DNA of 64,000 nucleotides from a virus. Location of the stretch: IMG/VR virus record IMGVR_UViG_3300023174_000062; one strand, 5' to 3'. The notes beneath the pieces are model-generated. The model ran no database searches and was not told the origin of the DNA. It saw only the letters and a list, made by a program, of their open reading frames with translations. Numbering within the stretch: the first letter of the stretch is position 1; every line of letters begins with the position of its first letter. The translations under genes were made by a program, and so were the position numbers. Of the stretch, positions 4,187 through 26,094 are shown one piece after another.

Positions 4187-5530
4187 ATGAGCGTAGAAAA
4201 TCTTTTAAAAAAATGGGCACCAGTTCTTGACCATGGCGATCTAGCCGCAATCAAGGATTCCCACAAGCGTTCCGTAACGGCGCAACTTCTTGAGAACCAA
4301 GAACGTGCTTGCCGTGAAGACGCACAGGGTTCTGGTGGTTACCGCAACCAAACATCGTTGCTTTCTGAAGCCGCACCAACTAACGCAATGGGCGCATCTT
4401 CATCTACAGCGGCCGATGGCGCAATCGACATTTATGATCCAGTCTTAATCAGTTTGGTTCGCCGTTCTGCACCTAACTTAATCGCATACGACATTTGCGG
4501 TGTTCAGCCAATGACAGGTCCAACAGGCTTGATCTTTGCAATGCGTTCACGCTATGCGACACAAGGCGGTACAGAAGCATTGTTCAACGAAGCAAACACA
4601 GCATTCTCTTCTGCTGGTAGCGGTTATACAACACAATCACAAACAGGTTCTTCACCTGCTGACTTATCTGCTGGTACAGAGTACACACGTGGAACTGGTA
4701 TGACTACAGCACTCGCTGAAGCATTAGGTGACGCCGCAGGTAATGCATTCCAAGAGATGGCATTCTCCATCGAAAAGATTGCTGTTACTGCTAAGAGCCG
4801 TGCTTTGAAAGCAGAATACACAATGGAACTTGCACAAGACTTGAAAGCAGTCCATGGTTTGGATGCTGAACAAGAATTGGCTAACATTCTTTCTACAGAA
4901 ATCTTAGCAGAAATTAACCGTGAAGTTGTTCGTACAATTAACTTGACTGCTACAGTTGGCGCACAAGAAAACGTTACAACTGCTGGTACATTCAACCTTG
5001 ACGTTGATGCTAACGGTCGTTGGTCTGTTGAGAAATTCAAAGGCTTGATGTTCCAATTGGAGCGTGAGTCTAATGCGATTGCTAAAGCAACTCGCCGTGG
5101 TAAAGGTAACGTGCTTATCTGTTCTTCAGACGTAGCATCTGCATTGCAAATGGCTGGTGTTCTTGATTACACTCCAGCACTTGCAAACAACTTGCAAGTT
5201 GATGACACAGGTAACACATTCGCTGGTGTATTGAATGGTCGTATCAAGGTTTACATCGATCCATATTTCGCCGCAACATCTGGTACACACTACGCAACAA
5301 TCGGTTACAAAGGCACTTCTGCTTTTGACGCTGGTTTGTTCTACTGCCCATACGTTCCATTGCAAATGGTTCGTGCAGTTGGTCAAGACACATTCCAACC
5401 AAAGATCGGCTTCAAGACACGTTACGGTATGGTCGCAAACCCATTCGCAACATCTGCCGCTGATGGTACATTGTCTTTCGCTAACAAGAACATCTACTAT
5501 CGTAGAATCGCAATTACTAACTTGATGTAA
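4187..5530 (+). CDS. gp23: major capsid protein
   Basis: KWAPVL, LLENQE, GVQPMTGPTGLIFAMR, SRALKAEYTMELAQDLKAVHGLDAE, FQPKIGFKTRYG. Confidence 0.99.
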   Translation: MSVENLLKKWAPVLDHGDLAAIKDSHKRSVTAQLLENQERACREDAQGSGGYRNQTSLLSEAAPTNAMGASSSTAADGAIDIYDPVLISLVRRSAPNLIAYDICGVQPMTGPTGLIFAMRSRYATQGGTEALFNEANTAFSSAGSGYTTQSQTGSSPADLSAGTEYTRGTGMTTALAEALGDAAGNAFQEMAFSIEKIAVTAKSRALKAEYTMELAQDLKAVHGLDAEQELANILSTEILAEINREVVRTINLTATVGAQENVTTAGTFNLDVDANGRWSVEKFKGLMFQLERESNAIAKATRRGKGNVLICSSDVASALQMAGVLDYTPALANNLQVDDTGNTFAGVLNGRIKVYIDPYFAATSGTHYATIGYKGTSAFDAGLFYCPYVPLQMVRAVGQDTFQPKIGFKTRYGMVANPFATSAADGTLSFANKNIYYRRIAITNLM

Positions 5531-12758: not shown

Positions 12759-12943
12759 AAATATTGAGTGAATATTTTGGAGACGAAATTGATAGACATG
12801 CAGAAATATACTTTGATGAAAACTTTTTCAAAGTTAGGGTAAGAAACGAACTTGGTTCTTATTTTGTTGCATTTTTTAATAATCTTGATGAAGCAGAAAA
12901 CTTTGCAGAAAATTATGTAAGAGGAGAAACAAATGAACCTTGA
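12755..12943 (+). CDS. hypothetical protein
   Basis: ATGA overlap with gp46; upstream AAGGA. Confidence 0.6.
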   Translation: MKILSEYFGDEIDRHAEIYFDENFFKVRVRNELGSYFVAFFNNLDEAENFAENYVRGETNEP

Positions 12944-13436
12944 ATTCGTACCAGAAACATCATCAGTTCTTTTAAGTGAATGTGATGATTTTGATTTTAA
13001 TAATCCTCCATACGATCCCAAAGAACTCGCACAAGCGTTACACGATAAAATGGTAGAGAGTGATGGACTTGGATTATCAGCAAATCAAGTTGGAATTCCA
13101 TATCGTGTTTTTGTTATGAGGACAGGTGATGAACCTTTTGCAATTTTTAATCCTAAAATTGTAGACGTATCAGATAGAGAACTTGTAATGAAAGAAGGCT
13201 GTTTAAGTTTTCCATTATTGTATTTGAATGTTAAACGTCCAGATGGCGTTCGCATTCGCTATCAAAAAGAAGATGGAAGCACCACAACCGAAAAGTTTAT
13301 TGGTATGACTGCCAGAATTGCATTGCACGAATTTGACCACATGATTGGAAAAGTGTATACTCAAAAGGCTTCACAATTTGAAACTCAACGTGCATTACGT
13401 AAACGCATGATTCTAAAACGTAAGGTAAAAAAATGA
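12933..13436 (+). CDS. def: peptide deformylase
   Basis: GLGLSANQVG, EGCLSFP, HEFDH motifs. Confidence 0.95.
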   Translation: MNLEFVPETSSVLLSECDDFDFNNPPYDPKELAQALHDKMVESDGLGLSANQVGIPYRVFVMRTGDEPFAIFNPKIVDVSDRELVMKEGCLSFPLLYLNVKRPDGVRIRYQKEDGSTTTEKFIGMTARIALHEFDHMIGKVYTQKASQFETQRALRKRMILKRKVKK

Positions 13437-13800: not shown

Positions 13801-14265
13801 ATGAATATTATGAGTAACATGACACGACACGCAGAACACGAACTTGACATTATCGGAATGACTGATGATGATGAAATGAATGGAATGATGCGAAAGCATA
13901 TTCTTCACATGATAGAAGAGTTTGCCGAAGAAGGACATAGTGGATTCTCAGCAAGTTATGCCATTCAATGTTTAGAAAAACTTTTGCGCTTTGAACCTTT
14001 GTCTCCTTTACAGGGTACAGATGATGAATGGGAAGATGTAGCAAGTATAAACGGTTCGCCTACGTGGCAGAACAAAAGATGTAGTAGAGTATTTAAAGAT
14101 GAAACAGGCGCATATGATATTAATGGAAAAGTTTTCTGGGAATGGTATACAGATGAAAATGGTGAAAAATTCAAATCGTATTTCACCGGACGTGAAAGCA
14201 GAGTTTATGTTACATTCCCGTATGTACCTACAACTGTCTACGAAGAAAGCGTTGCAGAGTCGTGA
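13801..14265 (+). CDS. hypothetical phage protein
   Basis: Contiguous ORF containing GHSGFSA and QNKRCSRVFK. Confidence 0.65.
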   Translation: MNIMSNMTRHAEHELDIIGMTDDDEMNGMMRKHILHMIEEFAEEGHSGFSASYAIQCLEKLLRFEPLSPLQGTDDEWEDVASINGSPTWQNKRCSRVFKDETGAYDINGKVFWEWYTDENGEKFKSYFTGRESRVYVTFPYVPTTVYEESVAES

Positions 14266-14798: not shown

Positions 14799-15899
14799 AT
14801 GAAACCTTGGCAACATGGATACGATATAGACTATCTTAAAGGACTTGAAGCGCAGTATGCAGACTACAATGCATATACGTTATCTCCTTTTGCGAAGTAT
14901 AAGAAGAATAACATTGCTGAGTCTTTGAAAAAAGGAACTCTTGTTTTGCTTGGTGATGCAATGATTGATGTAACAGTAAACAAAGTTGCGTCAGACATTA
15001 CAATGCATGGCGACACAGTTATTGCAACAAAATTAAAAGGTGATGTTACAATTGGAAAATTAGTTGGTGATCTCAATGCTATTGAGAAACAAATCAATAC
15101 ATTGTCCGGATCAAACTTTTGGCTATATGTGTGGGCAGAAAACAAAACACATTGTGATTTAGCAGAACAATTAGGATTCTGTTATGTTGGTCCTAAGATT
15201 ACAACCTATGGTGAAGTCTATGCAATTTACTATAAAGGCACAGGCATACCAAGATCATTTCCTAAAGTTGATCCAGCAGAATATTTGAGTATTAAAAAAG
15301 TTGGAAATTTGAACTTAGATTTCATTCAAAAAGTTTATGATAAATTAAATAAACTTCCTGAATTTACAAATCACTACAGCAATTATAACAAAGATAAAGC
15401 ATGGTCTGCATTGTCTTTACGTGGTTACACTAGAGATCCAGCATTCATTACAAAACCATCTGAGATGAATGATAAATGGAAAGAAGAAAACAAAGATAAC
15501 GTGTTTGGTTTAATTGATACGCCATTGTATGAGATGTTTCCCGAAGTGCGTGAATTTGTTGAACAATTGGGTAAAGAAGTGCATCGTGTTCGATTTATGC
15601 GTTTGAAACCAGGTGGTGGAGAACTTGAACGACATACGGATCAAGTTGATTCTGATTCTGGTGGTTCGAAAGGAAAACTTGCACGTATTCATGTACCAAT
15701 TAAAACAAATGATGACGTTATATTTACTGTTTGGAATACCAGAGGTGTTGCTGAAAAGGTAAACATGAAAGTTGGTGAGTATTGGTTTTTAGACACACGC
15801 AAACCACACCAAGCAATCAATGGTGGAACTGAAGAAAGAATTCATTTAGTAATTGACGTAGTGTCAGAAGGAAATTTATATGAGTCGCTTGTATCCTGA
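14799..15899 (+). CDS. fusion of a GNAT-like N-domain and an Asp/Asn beta-hydroxylase-type 2OG-Fe(II) domain
   Basis: C-term RVRFMRLKPGG..HTD, RIHVPI, KPHQAIN, RIHLVID; N-term LYVWAEN...LAEQLGF resembles the GNAT C-terminal motif. Confidence 0.75.
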   Translation: MKPWQHGYDIDYLKGLEAQYADYNAYTLSPFAKYKKNNIAESLKKGTLVLLGDAMIDVTVNKVASDITMHGDTVIATKLKGDVTIGKLVGDLNAIEKQINTLSGSNFWLYVWAENKTHCDLAEQLGFCYVGPKITTYGEVYAIYYKGTGIPRSFPKVDPAEYLSIKKVGNLNLDFIQKVYDKLNKLPEFTNHYSNYNKDKAWSALSLRGYTRDPAFITKPSEMNDKWKEENKDNVFGLIDTPLYEMFPEVREFVEQLGKEVHRVRFMRLKPGGGELERHTDQVDSDSGGSKGKLARIHVPIKTNDDVIFTVWNTRGVAEKVNMKVGEYWFLDTRKPHQAINGGTEERIHLVIDVVSEGNLYESLVS

Positions 15900-16644
15900 A
15901 GATGTTTCTGATATAATCAAAGATTGGAAAGACCCAAACCCTGCACCAATAGTTGAAATGCACAATGGCTTTTATGTTGTACGTGATGACTTATTAGAGT
16001 ATGGAAGTAAAAGTCGATTTATTGACCATCTAGTAAAAACTACTGAGTGTGATGAATGGGTCTTTGGTGGCGCAAACAAAGTTGGTTGGGGTCCTATATC
16101 ATTAACGCATGTGTGCAATCTGTATGGAAAAAAAGCAACGTTCTTCATGGCTAAACGCAAAGAGCCTACGTGGCATCAGCAAAGAGTGCTTGACCTTGGG
16201 GGTACAATTCATTGGGTTGACAATGGTATGCTTACTGTGACAAAAGCAAAAGCAAGACGTTATCAAGAAGAAGACACAAAGCGCAGACAATGTTTGCCTT
16301 TAGGGTTAGAACATCCATCTGTGCTTGCATCGATTGTTAAAGTTGCAAGAGATTTGAAAATCAAACCAACAGAGATTTGGACTGTTGCATCAAGCGGAAC
16401 ATTGAATCGTGGATTGCAAATGGCATTTCCCGATGTGCCTGCGTATGCAGTAGAAATTGGACATAAGATGAGTGACTACGAAAAAGGTCGTGCTATCACT
16501 ATGCGTTCACCATATAAGTATGACCAAGTAGTTGAAGAGAGTCAAGCACCACCATATCCATCTGAGAAATACTACGATGCTAAACTTTGGCAGTTTGTAG
16601 TGAGTAGTGGGAAACCAGGCGCACTAATCTGGAATGTAGCGTAA
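15880..16644 (+). CDS. PLP-dependent enzyme, fold type II (ACC deaminase / D-cysteine desulfhydrase-like)
   Basis: VVRDDLL..GSKSR (Schiff-base Lys), VASSGT phosphate loop, YYDAK. Confidence 0.8.
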   Translation: MSRLYPEDVSDIIKDWKDPNPAPIVEMHNGFYVVRDDLLEYGSKSRFIDHLVKTTECDEWVFGGANKVGWGPISLTHVCNLYGKKATFFMAKRKEPTWHQQRVLDLGGTIHWVDNGMLTVTKAKARRYQEEDTKRRQCLPLGLEHPSVLASIVKVARDLKIKPTEIWTVASSGTLNRGLQMAFPDVPAYAVEIGHKMSDYEKGRAITMRSPYKYDQVVEESQAPPYPSEKYYDAKLWQFVVSSGKPGALIWNVA

Positions 16645-16667
16645 TCAATATTCAAAGGAGTCGAAAC

Positions 16668-16925
16668 ATGAGTACAGAAGAAGATAAATTTAAACATTCT
16701 AAACGAATCCTTAAAGATGAAAATGCAATACGAAAGCAATTGAAAATTGCAAAAGCATATAACATACCAGTTGAGAATCCACACGAACTTGCTAAACATC
16801 ATGCTATGAACTGTGGAAATCCTAATTGTGTGATGTGTGCAAATCCTAGAAAAGTATGGAAAGAAAAAACGATTCAAGAAAAACGTTTTGAACAGACTGA
16901 AAAGTACAAAGAAGAAAATGATTAA
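16668..16925 (+). CDS. small Zn-finger protein
   Basis: HHAMNCGNPNCVMCANPR; AAGGAG SD. Confidence 0.7.
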   Translation: MSTEEDKFKHSKRILKDENAIRKQLKIAKAYNIPVENPHELAKHHAMNCGNPNCVMCANPRKVWKEKTIQEKRFEQTEKYKEEND

Positions 16926-17379
16926 AGAGAAATATCTTGGCGCATACATGAAGACTGCAAGAGTCTTTGCTGAATTGAGTACTGCTAGACGTAAACAAGT
17001 TGGTGCGGTTGTCGTTAAAGATGATCGCATCATATCAATTGGTTACAATGGTATGCCAAGTGGATGGGATAATAATTGTGAAGACATGTTTATTATCCAA
17101 GATGAAATTTCTACTGGTGTGTACTCTCTAACCAAAAGAACAGAACTTAAAACAAAACCTGAAGTTCTCCATGCAGAGTCTAATGCAATTGCCAAACTAG
17201 CAAAGTCTACCGAGAGTGGTGATGGTGCAAGTATGTTTATTACTTGCGCTCCATGCATGGATTGTGCTAAAATGATATTTCAAAGCGGTATCAAAGAAGT
17301 ATTTTACGGTGAAGACTACCGTGATGATGCTGGTATTCGTTTCCTAAATAAATGCGGAATAACTGTAAAACAAATATAA
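16918..17379 (+). CDS. cd: dCMP deaminase
   Basis: VGAVVV, GYNGMPSG, HAESNA, APCMDC. Confidence 0.95.
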   Translation: MIKEKYLGAYMKTARVFAELSTARRKQVGAVVVKDDRIISIGYNGMPSGWDNNCEDMFIIQDEISTGVYSLTKRTELKTKPEVLHAESNAIAKLAKSTESGDGASMFITCAPCMDCAKMIFQSGIKEVFYGEDYRDDAGIRFLNKCGITVKQI

Positions 17380-17380
17380 T

Positions 17381-18955
17381 ATGACAAAACATTTTTATGA
17401 ACGTAATGATTGGTTGTTGAACCACGAAACAAACAAGACATTTGAAGAAGTGCAATGGATGACTGAAGACGAATTTCGTCAATGGTTCATCGATTTGCGT
17501 AAAGCAGTCGTACACTCATGGGACACTATGGGTCAGCCACCAAGAGTTGGTTGGGATGAAGATGCAATCAAAAAACAATTCAAAGAGATGTATGGATTTC
17601 CTGTGCATGAGTTTGAACACGTTGACGAATTGACTGGTGAGAAAGATGTAATTCGAAACACTAGCGTAGTTGGCAATGCGGCTAATCAATGGTTCCCGAC
17701 TATGATGAAGACACGCATTAACTATACGAAGAATGATGATGGGCTTTCAATCTATGACCACTTTCTAAAAGATGAATTGCTTGAGAAGACATTGAAGTAT
17801 TCCAAACGACACTTCAAGCGTGATTCGTTCTATGCATATTCAAATACAATTAAAGTCAATGAGATTATCAGCGTTGGTTCTTACAATGTCAAATTTAAGA
17901 ATGGCAATGACTTTGTTCGTTGGTTTGAAGACAACAACATTCGACAATATGGTTATGACTATTGGGTAGAGAGTCGTGACGATGACGAAGAGTATAGTGG
18001 CTACAATGAAAAACTTAAAGATGCAAAGTATCTTGAAGTGACACAAGATATTCTAGAGACAATTCCATCTAAGTCTACAATGAACATAAAGTCGCATGAC
18101 CAGAAGAAGTATCGTCTGCGTATGTACAAGTATGGACAAAAGATTTTTCCTGTCGGCTTAAAAGCATTCCGTGTATCGTGGTGCCAATATGCTGTTAACT
18201 TCCCACCATTGACTGCAAAACTACTTTATGAAAAATTTACTCGACACGTTAAGAACCAAGATAGAATTGTTGTTTACGATCCCTCTTCTGGTTGGGGTGG
18301 GCGTATTTTGGGTGCTATGGCTTCTCGCACTTCTCTTCCTTTACACTATGTGGGTACTGATCCTAATACCGATCACACTATTAATGGCGATGGCGGCACT
18401 ACTAGTACTAAATATGCCGACTTGGCTAATTTCTATAACTCCTCAAAGAACGAAGGAGTTTTGTTTGAACAGTCCAACACTTATGAAATTTTTCAACTTG
18501 GTTCAGAAGTTGTCAGAGATGATAGTTCGTTCCAAAAGTACAAGGGCGAATTAGACATGGTGTTCACTAGCCCTCCTTACTTTGCTAAGGAAGCGTATAG
18601 TGAAGATCCAACGCAATCGTATAAAAAGTTTACTGGCTATGATGCATGGCGTGAAGGCTTCTTACGTCCAACGCTAGAAACTGCTGTTGAGTATTTGCGT
18701 AATGACAGATATCTACTTTGGAATATTGCTGACGCTAAGTTTGGTGCTGACATGTTGCCACTTGAAAAAGATAGCAAAGACATTTTGGAATCACTCGGTA
18801 TGCAATTCAAAGGTGTCGTTAAAATGGCACTAGCACAAATGCCAGGCGGCAATCGTATTGACCCTGATACTGGTTTACCTAAAGCAAAAAACTTTTGCAA
18901 AGTAAACGGGATGTGGTTGAAGTATGAACCAATCTTTGTATTTTACAAGCCATGA
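17381..18955 (+). CDS. SAM-dependent amino (N4-C/N6-A) DNA methyltransferase-like protein with large N-terminal domain
   Basis: Motif I YDPSSGWGGR, then GTDPN, motif IV FTSPPYF. Confidence 0.8.
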   Translation: MTKHFYERNDWLLNHETNKTFEEVQWMTEDEFRQWFIDLRKAVVHSWDTMGQPPRVGWDEDAIKKQFKEMYGFPVHEFEHVDELTGEKDVIRNTSVVGNAANQWFPTMMKTRINYTKNDDGLSIYDHFLKDELLEKTLKYSKRHFKRDSFYAYSNTIKVNEIISVGSYNVKFKNGNDFVRWFEDNNIRQYGYDYWVESRDDDEEYSGYNEKLKDAKYLEVTQDILETIPSKSTMNIKSHDQKKYRLRMYKYGQKIFPVGLKAFRVSWCQYAVNFPPLTAKLLYEKFTRHVKNQDRIVVYDPSSGWGGRILGAMASRTSLPLHYVGTDPNTDHTINGDGGTTSTKYADLANFYNSSKNEGVLFEQSNTYEIFQLGSEVVRDDSSFQKYKGELDMVFTSPPYFAKEAYSEDPTQSYKKFTGYDAWREGFLRPTLETAVEYLRNDRYLLWNIADAKFGADMLPLEKDSKDILESLGMQFKGVVKMALAQMPGGNRIDPDTGLPKAKNFCKVNGMWLKYEPIFVFYKP

Positions 18956-19587
18956 TTTTCTCACATAAAACATTACGTAATTTTGGATATATGGAATTCA
19001 AATTTAATGAATTTGAATTGAAACCAATTCACGATGAAATTCGAGAAATTCAAAATGAGAATTTTACTAGACACCGTGCAGATGTTCAATTGGTTTCAAA
19101 TTTTGCAAATGAGTACACGCTACCAAAATGCCATGACTACGTTGAAAAACTTTTGAAACCATATGCTCTAGATTATTTTAGAAATTCTGAATTGTGGTCA
19201 AACAACTTAGTTACAGATGACCATGAAGTAAATACGAATATTAAGATGACTCCTTTATGGGTTAATTTTCAAAAGAAGTATGAATTTAATCCAATCCATA
19301 GGCATAGTGGAGTTCTTAGTTTTGTTATTTGGATTGATATTCCATATAGAAAAGAAGATGAGAAATATATAAAATCAGACAATTCGGTTGCGGCCGCACC
19401 TGGATGTTTTAGTTTTGTATATACTGATATTTTGGGTGGTGTAAAAACACATTGGATCCCAGCAGATTGCACTTACAACAATACGATGGTTCTTTTTCCT
19501 GCTGGACTAAATCATTGTGTATATCCATTTTACACTTCAGACAAGTATAGAATTTCTGTCGCAGGAAATTTCTCTCTTGCAATATAA
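18952..19587 (+). CDS. 2OG-Fe(II) oxygenase-like protein
   Basis: WVNFQKKYEFNPIHRH, FPAGLNHCVYPF, RISVAGN. Confidence 0.85.
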   Translation: MIFSHKTLRNFGYMEFKFNEFELKPIHDEIREIQNENFTRHRADVQLVSNFANEYTLPKCHDYVEKLLKPYALDYFRNSELWSNNLVTDDHEVNTNIKMTPLWVNFQKKYEFNPIHRHSGVLSFVIWIDIPYRKEDEKYIKSDNSVAAAPGCFSFVYTDILGGVKTHWIPADCTYNNTMVLFPAGLNHCVYPFYTSDKYRISVAGNFSLAI

Positions 19588-19600
19588 AGGAGAAAATAAT

Positions 19601-20278
19601 ATGAAAAAAAATGAATTTGAATTTGAATTTGGTGAGTTTCACAATTTAGGATTTATTGGATTGCAATTGTCTGAAGAACAACTAAAACCAATTCGAAATG
19701 AAGTTGAAACAATTCGTAAAAATTTCAAAGGCCATTTAAAGATAAACAAAGAGTTGGCAGGAAATATTGAACATGAGTATGAATTAAACAAATGTAAAAG
19801 TCATATCTTCAGTATACTTATGCCATTGATGGCTCAGTACATTGAACGTTGGGGCGTCTTCAATAAAATTGGTATGTTGACGAATGATGTTCCAATGGTA
19901 CTTAGTAGTCTATGGGTTAATTTTCAAAAGAAACATGAATTTAATCCTCCTCATGTGCATCAAGGCTTAGCAAGTTTTGTTATATGGCTTGATACTCCAT
20001 TTTCAATGGAAGATGAATTGAATACTCTATCAAGTAAAGATGCCGCTATTAAAATTCCTGGACATTTTCAGTTTCTATATACGGACTCACAAGGACATAT
20101 TCGTCAATGCAATATGCCAGTAGACAAAACATGGAATGGAAGAATGGTTCTCTTTCCTTCAACTATGGTACATGCTGTATATCCATTTTCTACTTCCGAT
20201 GAGTATAGAATAAGTATTTCTGGTAACGTTAAACTAGATACAAGTAAATCTAAAATATCAAATTACAATATGAGATGA
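19601..20278 (+). CDS. 2OG-Fe(II) oxygenase-like protein (paralog of previous)
   Basis: WVNFQKKHEFNPPHVH, FPSTMVHAVYPF, RISISGN. Confidence 0.85.
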   Translation: MKKNEFEFEFGEFHNLGFIGLQLSEEQLKPIRNEVETIRKNFKGHLKINKELAGNIEHEYELNKCKSHIFSILMPLMAQYIERWGVFNKIGMLTNDVPMVLSSLWVNFQKKHEFNPPHVHQGLASFVIWLDTPFSMEDELNTLSSKDAAIKIPGHFQFLYTDSQGHIRQCNMPVDKTWNGRMVLFPSTMVHAVYPFSTSDEYRISISGNVKLDTSKSKISNYNMR

Positions 20279-20862
20279 GTTTATATTTTACTAATCACAT
20301 TGTTTCACCTTTATCTCAAGATGTTATAGATGATCTTAGAAAGTTTGACTGGCACACAATCATAGATAAAGGAAATAAATTAGAAGACTTGAATGATAGA
20401 CAATGGAGATTCATCAAAGGCTTGGTTATAGAATTGATTGTGGAGAAGTATAGTGGAGAAGATGGACTAACTTATGTTGGAGATTCATTCAAAGATTATT
20501 TTTGGAAAAAATATAATCTAACTGTAGAATTAAAAAGTGGTTTGTCTGGAAGCATGTATGGTAAAAAAGGAAATTTAAATAAAAATTTCAACATCAAACT
20601 TAACAACAGTAACGGCACCAATAAAAAATCTACATTAGAACTAAGTGAAGTTGCCGACATATTGCTTGTAATCAAAAATGACGGAGCATTTGTTGTTGAC
20701 AACAATACTATAATCAGATGCAGTATGAAAAGTGGAGATGGATTTGATCTTGTATTGAATAGGGGTGACGTTACTCCTATAACTGGTAAACTATATTCAA
20801 ATACTTGTGGCGAATTGAATCTAAAAGAAAAAATTATGAATGCTATCAGAGGTGTAATCTAA
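20275..20862 (+). CDS. PD-(D/E)xK restriction-endonuclease-like protein
   Basis: KGLVIE...KDY...VELKS spacing fits the E..D..ExK active site. Confidence 0.5.
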   Translation: MSLYFTNHIVSPLSQDVIDDLRKFDWHTIIDKGNKLEDLNDRQWRFIKGLVIELIVEKYSGEDGLTYVGDSFKDYFWKKYNLTVELKSGLSGSMYGKKGNLNKNFNIKLNNSNGTNKKSTLELSEVADILLVIKNDGAFVVDNNTIIRCSMKSGDGFDLVLNRGDVTPITGKLYSNTCGELNLKEKIMNAIRGVI

Positions 20863-21045: not shown

Positions 21046-21645
21046 ATGTCACATATCGAACGTCCTGGTGCCTACGAAGCCGCTATCAAGCGTAACATCT
21101 TGAACAATGCTACCAAAACTTTCTACAGGACATATCCTGATGCTGGCGATATTGTCACATTCCTGAATGCTAATTACAAAAATTCGTTTTACTCAAACCT
21201 TCTTGGTTCATTGAACACTTATGGTAAGTTGACAGAAAAACAAGTCCTTGCTGTACGCAAGTCTATGGCAACAATGGCTGAACGTAAAGCGCAATGGCAA
21301 GCCGAAGCGGTTGCTAAAAATGCAACCCGTACATTCGTTGGTACTGAAAAGAAAAAGATTACTGTTACTCTTACAGTTAAAAAAGCAATTGTGGTTGAGC
21401 GTCCTCGCTTCCACTACTATGATTCTGGCACCAGCCTTCTCCGTATTTGTGAAGATGCCGCTGGCAATGTTATCGTATTCAGCGGCAATGCAGATTTTCC
21501 TGCCGAAGGCGAGACTGCCACTATCACCGCTACAGTAAAGATGCACCGCTACTATAAACAAGGTGACATTGAAGTGCCACAGACAGTTATCATCCGTCCT
21601 AAGACTGTTGCAACGGTACAACAACCTGTTGCAGAAACCGCTTGA
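21046..21645 (+). CDS. early hypothetical protein with possible C-terminal OB-fold
   Basis: GAGGA SD; GKLTEKQ motif; beta-rich C-term ending ATVKMH...QTVIIRPK. Confidence 0.65.
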   Translation: MSHIERPGAYEAAIKRNILNNATKTFYRTYPDAGDIVTFLNANYKNSFYSNLLGSLNTYGKLTEKQVLAVRKSMATMAERKAQWQAEAVAKNATRTFVGTEKKKITVTLTVKKAIVVERPRFHYYDSGTSLLRICEDAAGNVIVFSGNADFPAEGETATITATVKMHRYYKQGDIEVPQTVIIRPKTVATVQQPVAETA

Positions 21646-21676: not shown

Positions 21677-23854
21677 ATGCTTAATAAACAACTTTCAAAA
21701 TCCACTTTAGCAAAGTTACTTGCTACAGAGAATATTTCGGTAGACTATCGCAAGGTGCAGACTGCATCATTCGATATCGTGAATCGCCGTCTTACTCTTC
21801 CCATTATGAATGACACCACACCAGAAATGACAGACCTTTTGGTCGGGCATGAAGTGGGTCACGCATTAGACACACCACAATCATACGTTGAATCGGCTAA
21901 GGCTGGCGGTTCTGCATTCTCTACATTCTTGAATGTGGTTGAAGATGCAAGGATCGAACGTAGAATGAAGGATCGATATCCAGGTTTGCGTAAGCCAATG
22001 GCTATTGCATATCGTCAATTTACCGAACGTGACTTCTTTGGTATCAAAGGTCAAGATGTAAACGCAATGATGTTGATTGATAGAATCAATTTGCATTTTA
22101 AACTTGGTGCTATTGCGGGCATTAAATTCAATGCAGAAGAAATGCTGTACGTTAAAGAGGTTGAAACGGCAGATTCTTTTGAGCAAGTAAAAGATATCAC
22201 CGAACGTTTGTATGCTTTTTGCAAAGCAGAGTTAGAACAAAAACGTCAAGAGGCTAAAGAAGAATTCGAAAAGCGCAAAGAGAATGGCGAATTCGATGAT
22301 GAAGATTTTGGTGACGATAGTTTCGGTGGTGATGATACTGAAGACTATGAAGACAAAAATCCAAATGATTATGATTCTGGATCCGATGACGGTGATGATG
22401 ATTTCGAATCTGAAGATCAATTCGACAATGGCTATTCTAATACGCCAACATTCGAAGATGCTATGCCTAATGAGTTGAAGGCATATGGTGATGAAGTGAA
22501 ATCTGTAACGGATGAAAAATTTCAACAAGCATTAAAAGGTCTTGCCGAAACAAAAGAAATTTATGTTGGTAAAATTGCTAGCCAATCTAAAATCAATGTA
22601 AAAGAATATGTTGTTCCGTTTAAAGAGTTAAAATTCTTTAATGATGAATTGTACAATGATCCTGAGTTGGAACCACACCAGCGTTATGATTCTACTTTGC
22701 TAACAAAATTTGAAGCCAAGAATAAAAATCCAATTGCGTATCTTGTAAAAGAATTTGAAATGAAAAAGAAAGCGGCTGAATTGCGCCGTGTAACAGTCTC
22801 CGATACTGGTACGCTGGACACCAACAAGTTGCATACTTACAAATTCAATGACGATATCTTCCGTAAGATTGGTTCTGTTGCTGAAGGTAAGAATCACGGT
22901 ATTGTGATGTTCATTGACTGGTCTGGTTCTATGCAAGATAATCTGTCTGGCACAATTGAACAGTTGATTACAATGGCAACGTTCTGCCGCAAAGTGAATA
23001 TTCCGTTTGATGTTTATGCCTTCAGTACCGAATATCAAAAGGCTAAAAAAGAATATGTTCCTGCGCCAGAAGGTCAATTGCAAATTGATAATTTTTCTCT
23101 GTTAAACATTTTGTCTAGCAGTATGAAGAATCCAACATATCGTAAATTTGCAAATGATTTGTTGCAAGTGGCTGAGGCATATCAACCTTATGTAAATCAT
23201 CGTAGAAATTACAAGTCTAGTTATATCTGTGATGGTATGGGACTTGGTGGTACTCCGTTGAATGCGACAATTCAAGTTGCATCTAATGTTGTGAATGATT
23301 TCCGTAAACGCACTCGGTCAGAAATTGTGAATGTTATCTTTTTGACTGATGGAGAAGATTCTTCTACTCTTTGGACTGATAATGAATTAGGTCGTAGTGT
23401 TCGTATCGGACCTTCTGACTTCCGTTCAGTATCTTACATTGAAGATAAAGATTCTGCAAAAACCTATCGTGTAAGTGACAAAGGTGTAACACCTACTCTG
23501 TTGGAAATTCTAAAGGATCGTACTGGTTGCAATTTGATTGGATTCTACATTCTGCCAAAAAGCAAACGTTACTTCCAAAATGCAATGGCACGTTTCAACA
23601 TGATGATGACGGATGATAAGTACAAACAATTCCGTAATGAAAAATTCTTTTCTGTTAACGGATATGGCTACTCAGAATATTTTCTGATTCCTGGTGGTGA
23701 TGATTTGTCTACCGAAGATGATTCGCTATCAGACATTCTTGGCGAAGCCAAAGATGTTTCCGCACGTAAGTTGAAAGGCGCATTCTTGAAAATGAACCAA
23801 AACCGTTTGACTAATCGTGTTCTTCTCTCTAAGGTAATCAAGGAAATTGCTTGA
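21677..23854 (+). CDS. CobT-like protein (HExxH N-domain, acidic linker, VWA domain)
   Basis: LAKLLATENI, GHEVGHAL, NVVEDARIE, MIDAS DWSGSM, GGTPL, FLTDGE. Confidence 0.88.
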   Translation: MLNKQLSKSTLAKLLATENISVDYRKVQTASFDIVNRRLTLPIMNDTTPEMTDLLVGHEVGHALDTPQSYVESAKAGGSAFSTFLNVVEDARIERRMKDRYPGLRKPMAIAYRQFTERDFFGIKGQDVNAMMLIDRINLHFKLGAIAGIKFNAEEMLYVKEVETADSFEQVKDITERLYAFCKAELEQKRQEAKEEFEKRKENGEFDDEDFGDDSFGGDDTEDYEDKNPNDYDSGSDDGDDDFESEDQFDNGYSNTPTFEDAMPNELKAYGDEVKSVTDEKFQQALKGLAETKEIYVGKIASQSKINVKEYVVPFKELKFFNDELYNDPELEPHQRYDSTLLTKFEAKNKNPIAYLVKEFEMKKKAAELRRVTVSDTGTLDTNKLHTYKFNDDIFRKIGSVAEGKNHGIVMFIDWSGSMQDNLSGTIEQLITMATFCRKVNIPFDVYAFSTEYQKAKKEYVPAPEGQLQIDNFSLLNILSSSMKNPTYRKFANDLLQVAEAYQPYVNHRRNYKSSYICDGMGLGGTPLNATIQVASNVVNDFRKRTRSEIVNVIFLTDGEDSSTLWTDNELGRSVRIGPSDFRSVSYIEDKDSAKTYRVSDKGVTPTLLEILKDRTGCNLIGFYILPKSKRYFQNAMARFNMMMTDDKYKQFRNEKFFSVNGYGYSEYFLIPGGDDLSTEDDSLSDILGEAKDVSARKLKGAFLKMNQNRLTNRVLLSKVIKEIA

Positions 23855-23914
23855 TGTTGCGTAAAAACAACAGTTTGAATAACCCTTGACTTACCATAAA
23901 TACTCTGTTATACT
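23855..23914 (+). promoter_or_regulatory. TGTTG-N8-CAACA palindrome plus sigma70 promoter
   Basis: TGTTGCGTAAAAACAACA 23855-23872; TTGACT(23886)-N17-TATACT(23909). Confidence 0.75.
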
Positions 23915-23957
23915 ACTAGTATTGAAATTGATTTTTAACTGAAAGGCAAATTATATT

Positions 23958-25145
23958 ATGATTACGCAAAGTGAAAAAATTGCATTCGTTACCGAAGCCG
24001 CCAAACGTTTCGGTGCCATTGTAACCCGCCAGCAATTGGTGACACTTTCTGAAGAGACTGGCACCAAGCGCCAGTTCTGGCTTGAAGCCGACCAGTACCG
24101 AGTTGGTCGTGGCAAGTATCAATTGCCCCTCCAAGAATTTAATGTTAACATGGCTGGTCTTGCACTAGTGCAATCCACTCCAGTTCCTTCTATGCCAATT
24201 ACTGAACCTATCAAGGCTCCTGTTGCAAAGGCAGTAGCAAAAATGTCTTCCGTTGCACGTATGCAAGAAGGCGCAATTATTCCTAAAGTGAATTCTCTAT
24301 ACGTTCCTTTTGGATTCTTTGACAACATGAAACGTATTGTTGCATCGAAGAAATTTTATCCAGTATTTGTTTCTGGTCTCTCTGGTAACGGCAAGACTTT
24401 CATGGTCGAACAAGCCTGTGCCCAATTGAAAACAGAATGTCTCCGTGTGAATATTTCACCAGAGACTGATGAAGATGATTTGATTGGTGGTTTCCGTTTG
24501 ATTGACGGTGAGACAAAATGGTTTGATGGTCCAGTTGTTCAAGCAATGAAGTCTGGCGCCGTTTTGATTCTTGATGAAATTGATCGTGGTTCAAATAAAC
24601 TAATGTGCTTGCAAGGTGTACTTGAAGGCAAAGGTTTGTTTGTTAAAAAGACTGGTGAGTTTGTTGAGCCAATGCAAGGTTTCAACGTTATCGCTACTGC
24701 AAACACCAAAGGTAAAGGTGATGAATCTGGTCGCTATATGGCCGCTACAATTCTTGATGATGCGTTCCTTGAGCGTTTCCCAATTACTGTAGAACAAGAA
24801 TATCCTGATGTTAAAGTTGAAACAAAGATTTTGACTAAGTTGTTTACCAGCCTTGGTATTGATGACAAAGCATTCGCAGAAAATCTTGTGAAGTGGGCTG
24901 ATATCATTCGTAAGACTTTCGAAGAAGGTGCTATCGATGAATTGATTTCTACTCGCCGTTTGTCGCACATTGCTGAAGCCTATACTATCTTCAATGATAA
25001 GATGGAAGCAATTAAGTATTGTATCAACCGCTTTGATGCAGAGACTAAAACTTCATTCCTTGATTTGTATACCAAGATTGATGCTGGCATTGATCCTACT
25101 GCGGAAGTGACACCTGCGCCAGCAGTTGATGACGTACCGTTCTAA
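23958..25145 (+). CDS. cobS: CobS/MoxR-like AAA+ ATPase
   Basis: GLSGNGKT, ETDEDDLIGG, LILDEID, ATANTKG, AFLERF, ISTRRL. Confidence 0.92.
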   Translation: MITQSEKIAFVTEAAKRFGAIVTRQQLVTLSEETGTKRQFWLEADQYRVGRGKYQLPLQEFNVNMAGLALVQSTPVPSMPITEPIKAPVAKAVAKMSSVARMQEGAIIPKVNSLYVPFGFFDNMKRIVASKKFYPVFVSGLSGNGKTFMVEQACAQLKTECLRVNISPETDEDDLIGGFRLIDGETKWFDGPVVQAMKSGAVLILDEIDRGSNKLMCLQGVLEGKGLFVKKTGEFVEPMQGFNVIATANTKGKGDESGRYMAATILDDAFLERFPITVEQEYPDVKVETKILTKLFTSLGIDDKAFAENLVKWADIIRKTFEEGAIDELISTRRLSHIAEAYTIFNDKMEAIKYCINRFDAETKTSFLDLYTKIDAGIDPTAEVTPAPAVDDVPF

Positions 25146-25236: not shown

Positions 25237-26094
25237 ATGGAATTTGAATTGAACATTCAGCAATTAAGAACTAAAAAACTTTTTATTGCGACACCAATGT
25301 ATGGCGGACAATGCCATGGTGCATACACAAAAGCAATCACCGATCTTATGGTACTATGTACCAAGTATGGTATTGAAGCCAAACTCTTTTTCATCTTCAA
25401 CGAATCACTAGTGCAACGTGCTAGGAATTATTTGACGGATGAATTTGTTCGTAGTGGATTCGATTATATGCTTTTCATCGATAGCGATATTCACTTTGAA
25501 GCGCAAGACGTTTTAGTGATGATGCACTTTGCGGTAACCCGTGAAGATATGGATGTTGTTTGTGCGCCATATCCAAAGAAAGCAATTTCTTGGGAGAAAA
25601 TTAAAGTTGCAGTTGACAAAGGATTCGCAGATGCTAATCCAAATCAATTGGAAGAATTTGTTGGTGACTACGTTTTCAATCCAGCAGATGGTGTTACTCA
25701 ATTCCGAATTGATGAACCAATCGAAGTGAAAGAAAGTGGTACAGGCTTTATGCTTATCACACGTACTGCACTTGAAAAATATGATGTTGCATTCCCAACA
25801 CAAAGTTATAAGCCAGATCATGTGCGTACAGAAAACTTTGATGGTAGCCGAGAAATCATGGCGTACTTTGATTGCGTTATTTGTCCAGATACAAAACGTT
25901 ATCTCTCAGAAGATTACATGTTCTGTCAATGGATGCGTAAAGCAGGTGGTAAGGTTTGGTTGCTTCCATGGATTCGTTTGAAACATGCTGGTAGTTATAT
26001 CTTTGGTGGTTCTTTGCAAGCACTTGCGGCTATCAATGCATCACCAACCGCCGATGCTACAGCAGTTAAAAGAAGTGTTACTGCACTAAGATGA
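25237..26094 (+). CDS. GT-A fold glycosyltransferase-like protein
   Basis: IATPMYGG, ESLVQRARN, LFIDSDI (DxD), GTGFMLI, YLSEDYMFC. Confidence 0.75.
   Translation: MEFELNIQQLRTKKLFIATPMYGGQCHGAYTKAITDLMVLCTKYGIEAKLFFIFNESLVQRARNYLTDEFVRSGFDYMLFIDSDIHFEAQDVLVMMHFAVTREDMDVVCAPYPKKAISWEKIKVAVDKGFADANPNQLEEFVGDYVFNPADGVTQFRIDEPIEVKESGTGFMLITRTALEKYDVAFPTQSYKPDHVRTENFDGSREIMAYFDCVICPDTKRYLSEDYMFCQWMRKAGGKVWLLPWIRLKHAGSYIFGGSLQALAAINASPTADATAVKRSVTALR

Follow-up and report, generated by a model that had tools for sequence, protein, structure and literature searches.

A recurrent, sometimes fused module of a methyltransferase-fold enzyme, a PLP enzyme and a hydroxylase in T4-like phages, with a probable role in DNA base modification

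The stretch of DNA analysed here (64,000 nt, IMG/VR virus record IMGVR_UViG_3300023174_000062; hereafter the window) derives from an uncultured T4-like myovirus and harbours, at positions 14799-20862, eight tightly packed and co-directional open reading frames (ORFs) on the + strand, which we denote g1 to g8. A first-pass annotation made from the letters alone had placed all eight in one base-modification locus. All eight ORFs are present as described, and the proposal is supported for a core of g1, g2 and g5, on the evidence of synteny, gene fusions and the family of g2, but not for an eight-gene pathway. g5 encodes an enzyme with the fold of class-I S-adenosylmethionine (SAM)-dependent methyltransferases (MTases), g2 a pyridoxal phosphate (PLP) enzyme, and g1 a hydroxylase dependent on Fe(II) and 2-oxoglutarate (2OG) that is joined to a GNAT-fold domain. 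Together they constitute a recurrent, sometimes fused and uncharacterised module, which, judged from sequence, probably places a group larger than methyl on DNA bases. To our knowledge, post-replicative DNA hypermodification is entered only through 5-hydroxymethylpyrimidines, 7-deazaguanine exchange or Mom-type acylation. If our interpretation is true, a module led by an MTase fold, with tailoring by a PLP enzyme and a hydroxylase, would represent a new entry route and probably a new base chemistry, carried by hundreds of uncultured phage contigs (the PLP family occurs on more than 565 viral contigs).

The connection to DNA chemistry is made through g2. Its product matches phrog_7093 (6.2e-28 over residues 27-254), the profile on which gp52 of Pseudomonas phage M6 scores 2.2e-159, and the two proteins find each other by BLASTP at 2e-8. 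Lys44 of g2 is invariant and aligned with M6 Lys36, an SSGT loop is common to both proteins (Ser172-Gly173 being invariant), and both end in the family-specific C-terminal signature PxPS..YDxKxW..WN. The family match, with lysine and phosphate loop kept, bears out the first-pass assignment of g2 as a fold-II PLP enzyme; its match to the Pfam PALP domain reaches 16.9 bits, under the 35-bit cut-off. M6 gp52 and ViI gp226 have been purified as yellow, PLP-dependent decarboxylases that remove CO2 from C-alpha-glycinyl-thymidine and O-serinyl-thymidine in polymeric DNA, with Lys36 as the proposed aldimine lysine of M6 gp52 (PMC8989533). g2 is predicted from these sequence features to act on an amino-acid-like side chain, for which decarboxylation is the precedent.

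Among the M6 pathway genes, only gp52 finds a match in the window. Searches of the window by tblastn, a method of low sensitivity here, gave nothing below E 0.3 for M6 gp51, gp53, gp54 and gp58, and revealed no M6-type 5-hydroxymethyldeoxyuridine (5-hmdU) kinase, amino-acid:DNA transferase, radical-SAM isomerase or hydroxymethylase, in agreement with the earlier statement that the window has no dCMP/dUMP hydroxymethylase or amino acid:DNA transferase gene. Neither a 5-hmdU kinase nor aGPT-Pplase was present among the 73 Pfam-scanned neighbours of PLP genes at non-T4-like loci. A 5-hmdU pathway was rejected since its partner genes were found neither in the window nor among these neighbours.

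g5 had been described as a 524-aa amino-MTase-like protein with about 290 aa ahead of motif I, and both its motifs and its predicted fold sustain that description. Motif I (DPSxGWGGR) lies at residues ~300-308, the acidic motif II at Asp327 and motif IV (SPPY) at residues 397-400; Asp300, Pro301, Gly304, Gly307, Arg308, Asp327, Ser397-Pro-Pro-Tyr400, Glu404 and Tyr406 are invariant. The ~290 aa preceding motif I include an N-terminal domain of ~270 aa. An AF2 model (pLDDT 84) adopts the class-I MTase fold (Z 13-15), the top structural matches being the amino-MTases Trm11, TrmN and Trm14 (Z ~15). Fused homologues of g5 match the DNA methylase families PF01555 or PF07669 (for PF01555, 26.8 bits in the fusion P0009, and 3.2e-08 at best), and PADLOC returned only weak type II MTase matches.

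For g1, the claimed fusion of a GNAT-like domain to an AspH-type hydroxylase is upheld as far as the folds go. In the AF2 model (pLDDT 92.8; residue numbers refer to a 370-aa ORF started at GTG, although the true start is the ATG at 14799), the N-terminal half (GNAT, residues ~11-155) resembles GNAT structures over residues 11-155, with 2pc1 at Z 12.0 (rmsd 3.3, 138 aligned), 2fia at Z 11.2 and Naa60 at Z 10.5-10.7. The C-terminal half (hydroxylase, residues ~160-366) matches PF05118 AspH (5.4e-13, 49.5 bits, cut-off 22.6) and forms a double-stranded beta-helix similar to L-proline cis-4-hydroxylase (4p7x, Z 15.9), AspH (Z 15.2) and a nucleoside-antibiotic beta-hydroxylase (Z 15.1), so that structure comparison places its closest kin among hydroxylases that act on amino acids or on Asp/Asn side chains. 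The HxD...H iron triad and the 2OG-binding arginine (His283, Asp285, His341, Arg351) are invariant in 24 homologues. Acylation by the GNAT half found no support: none of the 24 homologues gave an Acetyltransf profile match at E up to 1, the Gly-rich Q/RxxGxG/A loop for the acyl-CoA was not seen on inspection of the junction at residues ~92-100, and this half is poorly conserved and missing altogether from relatives L034, L036 and L048. On the model, g1 would be an optional tailoring enzyme of the module.

To place these genes in context, we fetched 125 IMG/VR loci with g5 and g2 and mapped 19 window proteins onto them. The order gp46-(PDF)-g1-g2-(g3-g4)-g5 ... CobT-CobS, where PDF is peptide deformylase, is retained down to ~45-60% gp46 identity. 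Close relatives have g1-g2-g3-g4-g5, and g1, g2 and g5 adjoin one another in a ~63% clade that lacks g3 and g4. The first-pass annotation had named neighbourhood conservation of the GNAT-AspH, PLP and MTase trio as a check on its proposal, and the slot is indeed kept across T4-like IMG/VR contigs. Where the interval was fully covered, the trio occurs in 50 loci, g1 with g5 in 13, g5 alone in 11, g2 with g5 in three and the oxygenase domain of g1 alone with g5 in three; these stretches have no PLP gene elsewhere. Mapped on the g5 tree, these states require at least seven changes, and adjacent tips differ in gene combination at branch lengths of ~0.02-0.09. g5 is nearly unchanged across all combinations and persists as the core, whereas g1 and g2 come and go; the pattern is that of a core installer with optional tailoring enzymes. 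Only g1, g2 and g5 of the eight genes form a conserved unit, and the catalytic residues of all three are invariant.

The three proteins are also found physically joined, as came to light on searching for longer relatives of g2. Single proteins of 994-1191 aa combine g5-g1-g2, an order unlike that of the genes in the window, while other fusions comprise ~680-aa g5-g2 proteins and one 547-aa g1-g2 protein. g1 is fused to g5 and g2 in P0001, P0005-09 and P0011-15, and one fusion is named from Nitrosomonas nitrosa in nr. The 1191-aa triple fusion P0011 (L142:5001-8576, contig Ga0224510_10000612; also on L141) lies on an apparently cellular contig of ~50% GC, next to a serine resolvase, a tyrosine integrase, ORFs of 455 aa and 325 aa and a complete type I restriction-modification system (HsdM/S/R), a setting which is a mobile or defence island. 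The 325-aa ORF, for which no family was detected, stops 28 nt short of the fusion. P0013 had no relatives among the genome contigs searched, and P0018 used as query on viral contigs returned the window's own clade only. In the unrelated siphovirus Erythrobacter phage R6L, gp1 begins with a ParB-like N-terminus, followed by an MTase motif I and an SCPPY motif IV between which lies a PALP domain that scores above the cut-off (40.6 bits), and in Microcystis phage Mae-JY30 a PF01555 gene stands immediately upstream of the PLP gene.

The association extends through the wider PLP family. A g2 profile retrieved 1410 cluster representatives, 220 of them below 1e-30. Among 35 long members of the family, the accompanying domains were PF01555 (13), YunG (PF24585; 9), AspH (3), Eco57I (2), DUF3102 (2) and ParB_N (1). 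More than 565 viral stretches came up with a divergent PLP query, and at 58 of the 78 viral loci analysed a match to the g5 MTase-domain HMM lies within three ORFs of the PLP gene (~45 at E <=1e-25, the rest at E 1e-4 to 1e-11). Many of these loci belong to a further T4-like group with the order gp47-gp46-PLP-g5. The other, non-T4 loci have PF01555 as their most frequent neighbour family by a wide margin (19 of 73 proteins, best 1.1e-43), with replication and packaging genes next. From linkage and fusions, g1, g2 and g5 are functionally coupled, and all three have kept their active sites.

YunG is thus the second commonest fused domain of the PLP family after PF01555. Elsewhere among the loci L144-L223, the neighbours of PLP-family genes include one match to the Mom family (PF25680, 1.1e-26) and one to PAPS reductase, a gene for which also lies near gp1 in R6L.

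We tentatively favour, at somewhat short of an even chance, a scheme in which a group derived from SAM is attached by g5 at specific positions in DNA and then worked on by g2 and g1, leaving a mark larger than methyl. g5 would bind SAM together with the exocyclic amine of a flipped-out base in its (S)PPY pocket, the ~270-aa N-terminal domain probably acting as the recognition part, and would transfer the SAM-derived group to that base. g2 would act next on the resulting amino-acid-like side chain, which would carry a primary amine, with decarboxylation again as the precedent, and the oxygenase half of g1 would hydroxylate the side chain. We infer DNA as the target, the order of the steps, and the identities of the group and of the base.

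The group may be the 3-amino-3-carboxypropyl (acp) moiety of SAM, which g2 and g1 could trim to a (hydroxy)aminopropyl-type adduct. A PLP enzyme needs a free alpha-amine, and neither an amino-acid:DNA transferase nor 5-hmdU machinery is at hand to supply one; acp is therefore the most parsimonious choice. Under the acp scheme, every observed gene combination would yield a chemically sensible product. In its full form, with g5 as the first DNA aminocarboxypropyl transferase on an A or C exocyclic amine, g2 decarboxylating on the polymer and g1 hydroxylating, we consider this proposal doubtful. Were it true, the product would be a cationic DNA base of a new class, made by a new hypermodification route without a modified dNTP pool or a 5-hydroxymethylpyrimidine; the route would be widespread, from aquatic T4-like phages through other phages to some mobile islands of bacteria. 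Literature searches turned up no description of an MTase-PLP pair for DNA modification, or of acp or aminopropyl DNA bases. The question is directly testable, because the ~1100-aa single-polypeptide fusions are ready-made constructs.

Comparison with known systems helps to situate this scheme. The nearest is the thymidine hypermodification of phages M6, ViI and PaMx11 (Lee et al., PMC8989533, PMC5889632), in which an amino-acid-like group on a DNA base is likewise tailored after replication; g2 belongs to the PHROG of M6 gp52 with the lysine kept, and the PaMx11 pathway also uses an acetyltransferase. Our module differs in that no dUMP hydroxymethylase, 5-hmdU kinase, amino-acid:DNA transferase or radical-SAM isomerase was detected in the window or among the Pfam-scanned PLP-gene neighbours at non-T4-like loci, and in that the partners of g2 are an MTase-fold enzyme and a 2OG hydroxylase. 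The target probably differs as well, being an exocyclic amine and not the pyrimidine C5. With the orphan and ParB-fused phage amino-MTases (PF01555 N6_N4_Mtase and PF07669 Eco57I), g5 shares motif I, the acidic motif II and a (S/D/N)PPY motif, and its homologues and partners score in both families; it is set apart by the order of motif I then IV after ~290 aa and by being repeatedly linked or fused to a PLP enzyme and a hydroxylase.

Two further systems provide chemical parallels. In the wybutosine pathway of tRNA, TYW2 is an acp transferase of MTase fold and TYW5 a 2OG hydroxylase of the acp chain. This is a mechanistic analogy only, illustrating that the transfer of SAM's acp group onto a base is within reach of an MTase fold, and hydroxylation of the chain within that of a 2OG oxygenase; the substrate there is RNA, no PLP step exists, kinship to g5 is not shown by sequence, and TYW2 is not among the structural matches listed for g5. 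Phage Mu Mom, a GNAT-like enzyme, makes N6-carbamoylmethyl-adenine and so evades restriction. It resembles our proposal in attaching a small amino-acid-derived group to a purine exocyclic amine of phage DNA, although it belongs to an unrelated enzyme family and works without SAM-fold, PLP or oxygenase partners.

Several observations weigh against a larger-than-methyl DNA mark. First, g2 and M6 gp52 are only 22-26% identical, hence the type of reaction could differ. Second, the structural kin of g5 include tRNA, rRNA and protein amino-MTases, tied with generic class-I MTases, and Foldseek/VIA could not separate DNA, RNA and protein amino-MTases for g5; the class of target is therefore not fixed. 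The PF01555 score of g5 itself (19.2 bits) is under the 26.7 cut-off. Third, g5 persists nearly identical in sequence without g1 or g2 in related phages, and no PLP gene is annotated beside its remote homologues from cultured Vibrio and Bacteroides phages. Lastly, any modification does not protect the genome globally, as seen in its restriction-site avoidance. In the window, 4-mers were counted against expectation as follows: AGCT 0/133, CGCG 0/64, GGCC 19/68, CCGG 15/40 and GATC 104/251. GCWGC occurs six times against 65 expected, and the 6-bp palindromes CTGCAG, GCATGC, GTGCAC, TCATGA, TGATCA and TGCGCA are absent. Related contigs have clade-specific versions of the pattern, and relatives carrying the trio avoid restriction sites at least as much as those without it. 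Such strong avoidance implies that not all A or C residues are shielded, and a site-specific mark fits better; blanket replacement of a base was rejected on this ground.

The same findings feed the main rival, according to which g5 is an ordinary site-specific N6-A or N4-C DNA MTase serving anti-restriction, while g2 and g1 are helpers acting on the cofactor, on a by-product (the amino-acid end of SAM or SAH, for instance) or on some small, unrelated amino acid. We regard this as a real possibility, if on the unlikely side. The canonical motif I and SPPY of g5 suit it, as does strong site avoidance, which is what a narrow site-specific methylase might accompany. Because g5 persists without its partners, being alone in the 11 syntenic loci and with g1 only in the 13 noted above, and because the cultured remote homologues, one of them annotated as an N4-cytosine methylase, stand apart from any annotated PLP partner, plain methylation stays a live rival. 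However, a methylated base offers a PLP enzyme no primary amine, and repeated independent fusions, including a PLP domain inside an MTase, are hard to square with unrelated functions. The nearest characterised relative of g2 works on DNA-tethered amino acids, and the literature searches yielded no precedent of a PLP helper for a methyltransferase. Should g5 do no more than methylate, it would still need explaining why DNA methylases repeatedly have a PLP partner.

The order of the steps could also be reversed, with g2 decarboxylating SAM, g5 acting as an aminopropyl transferase of the spermidine-synthase type on the base amine, and g1 hydroxylating the product. Aminopropyl transferases do have the class-I MTase fold, and a polyamine synthase is among the matches of g5 (Z 12.8); moreover, the PLP domain of R6L gp1 is inserted beside the SAM-binding motifs, and decarboxylation is the proven activity of the family. 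Nevertheless, known SAM decarboxylases are pyruvoyl enzymes, and g5 occurs in many phages without g2, where it would have no donor. The substrate of M6 gp52 is moreover a polymer and not a cofactor (PMC8989533). We hold this order to be improbable.

An amine of RNA (tRNA or rRNA) or of protein, instead of DNA, is a target that we likewise think quite unlikely. The best matches of g5 are the tRNA m2G enzymes Trm11, TrmN and Trm14, followed by METTL5, PrmC and TrmM, some fusions are named TrmN6 by JGI, and the logic of acp transfer followed by hydroxylation is that of tRNA wybutosine. Against this, partners found in fusions or next door score in DNA methylase families (PF01555 and PF07669, up to 1.1e-43), ParB-N turns up in fusions and DNA-replication genes in the neighbourhood, the characterised relatives of g2 act on DNA, and no THUMP or other RNA-binding domain was seen in profile and structure searches with g5. 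A single pathway made up of all eight genes, with the dCMP deaminase, both PF13759 oxygenases and g8 among them, is scarcely credible despite their uninterrupted, co-directional and overlapping ORFs and a 2OG oxygenase following g5 in a few relatives, given that g6-g8 are missing from most relatives and are never part of a fusion and that other clades lack g3 and g4 or have them in a different place.

The coordinates of the module, its neighbours and other features of the window are collected in Table 1.

Table 1. Features of the 64,000-nt window
Feature	Position	Strand	Description
gp23	4187-5530		major head protein
PDF	12933-13436		peptide deformylase
Tad3-like ORF	13801-14265	+	154 aa, PF25185 match 2.7e-42
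g1	14799-15899	+	GNAT-fold domain fused to AspH-like Fe(II)/2OG hydroxylase
g2	15880-16644	+	254-aa fold-type-II PLP enzyme, M6 gp52 family
g3	16668-16925	+	85 aa, phrog_4499 (6.8e-09), H-C-C-C set
g4	16918-17379	+	dCMP deaminase, T4 cd-type nucleotide metabolism
g5	17381-18955	+	524-aa class-I SAM-dependent amino-transferase-fold enzyme
g6	18952-19587	+	2OG-Fe(II) oxygenase, PF13759 (9.8e-08), phrog_81
g7	19598-20278	+	g6 paralogue, PF13759 (6.7e-11)
g8	20275-20862	+	195-aa ORF, function not assigned
phrog_27218 ORF	21046-21645	+	conserved, flanks CobT/CobS
CobT + CobS	21677-25145		
phrog_1574 ORF	25237-26094	+	conserved, flanks CobT/CobS

Within the eight-gene run, g1 and g2 overlap by 20 nt, and g5/g6 and g7/g8 by 4 nt each, while g5 begins at 17381, just past the end of g4 at 17379. 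The identities first given to the ORFs hold for seven of them, the exception being g8 as a PD-(D/E)xK nuclease, for which no profile or sequence match was obtained. The distribution of the remaining five genes across the relatives' loci led us to reject g3-g4 and g6-g8 as pathway members, and with them the eight-gene pathway.

In g3, His39, Cys49, Cys54 and Cys57 are invariant in 27 sequences, suggesting a probable zinc knuckle. The gene is found in the closer clade only and is absent from the ~63% clade, where g2 abuts g5. g4 is a dCMP deaminase as first annotated, matching PF00383 (6.5e-22, 77.8 bits, cut-off 25) and phrog_174 (1.2e-51) with the HAE and PCxxC motifs intact (the zinc site His85-Ala-Glu87, Pro112-Cys113 and Cys116 is invariant); its start is likely the ATG at 16918. 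It lies kilobases away or is missing in other clades, and both g3 and g4 are ordinary inserts between g2 and g5, outside the module. The remote g5 homologue at L225:3704-5323, in Vibrio phage 2.058.O, bears the annotation N4-cytosine methylase and adjoins a dCMP/cytidine deaminase; the adjacency of g5 and a deaminase both there and in the window is perhaps a coincidence within a nucleotide-metabolism block.

g6 and g7 are paralogous 2OG-Fe(II) oxygenases, as had been noticed, with PF13759 matches in both and 40% identity to each other (E 2e-53); 19598 is probably the start of g7. A close copy of g6 occurs on one contig only (L027/L090), with copies 44-48% identical on L014/L098 and L101, and g7 is patchy among relatives, its close copy again being on L027/L090. 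For g8, no match was found in Pfam, PHROG, NCBIfam, PDB sequences or by tblastn against phages. A language model offered 'restriction endonuclease family' at a very high score (possibly g8's own cluster) and T4 endonuclease IV at a high one; the other lead, a PADLOC match, is weak, and a D...ELK string is recognized by eye only. Among the mapped loci, g8 is present only in L027/L090 and L115. g6, g7 and g8 are variable cargo.

The window further encodes a UvsW-type helicase, gp47, gp46, the gp43 polymerase, the gp41 helicase, NrdA and NrdB. Its closest cultured capsid relatives, 64-68% identical, are Stenotrophomonas phage DLP_6, Pelagibacter phage Mosig, Methylophilales phage Melnitz and cyanomyoviruses; g5 is absent from DLP_6, Mosig and Melnitz. 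Against cultured phages, blastn with the eight-gene region matched only ~100-nt fragments of 2OG-oxygenase genes. No protein examined had an NCBIfam match, PDB sequence searches with g2, g5, g8 and the L142 neighbours gave nothing useful, and a promoter and terminator scan scored no better than shuffles. The two ORFs that flank CobT/CobS, to which no function was assigned, are syntenic in most relatives. Lastly, just upstream of the module sits an anti-defence ORF resembling Tad3, an inhibitor of type I Thoeris, which is carried by some relatives only.

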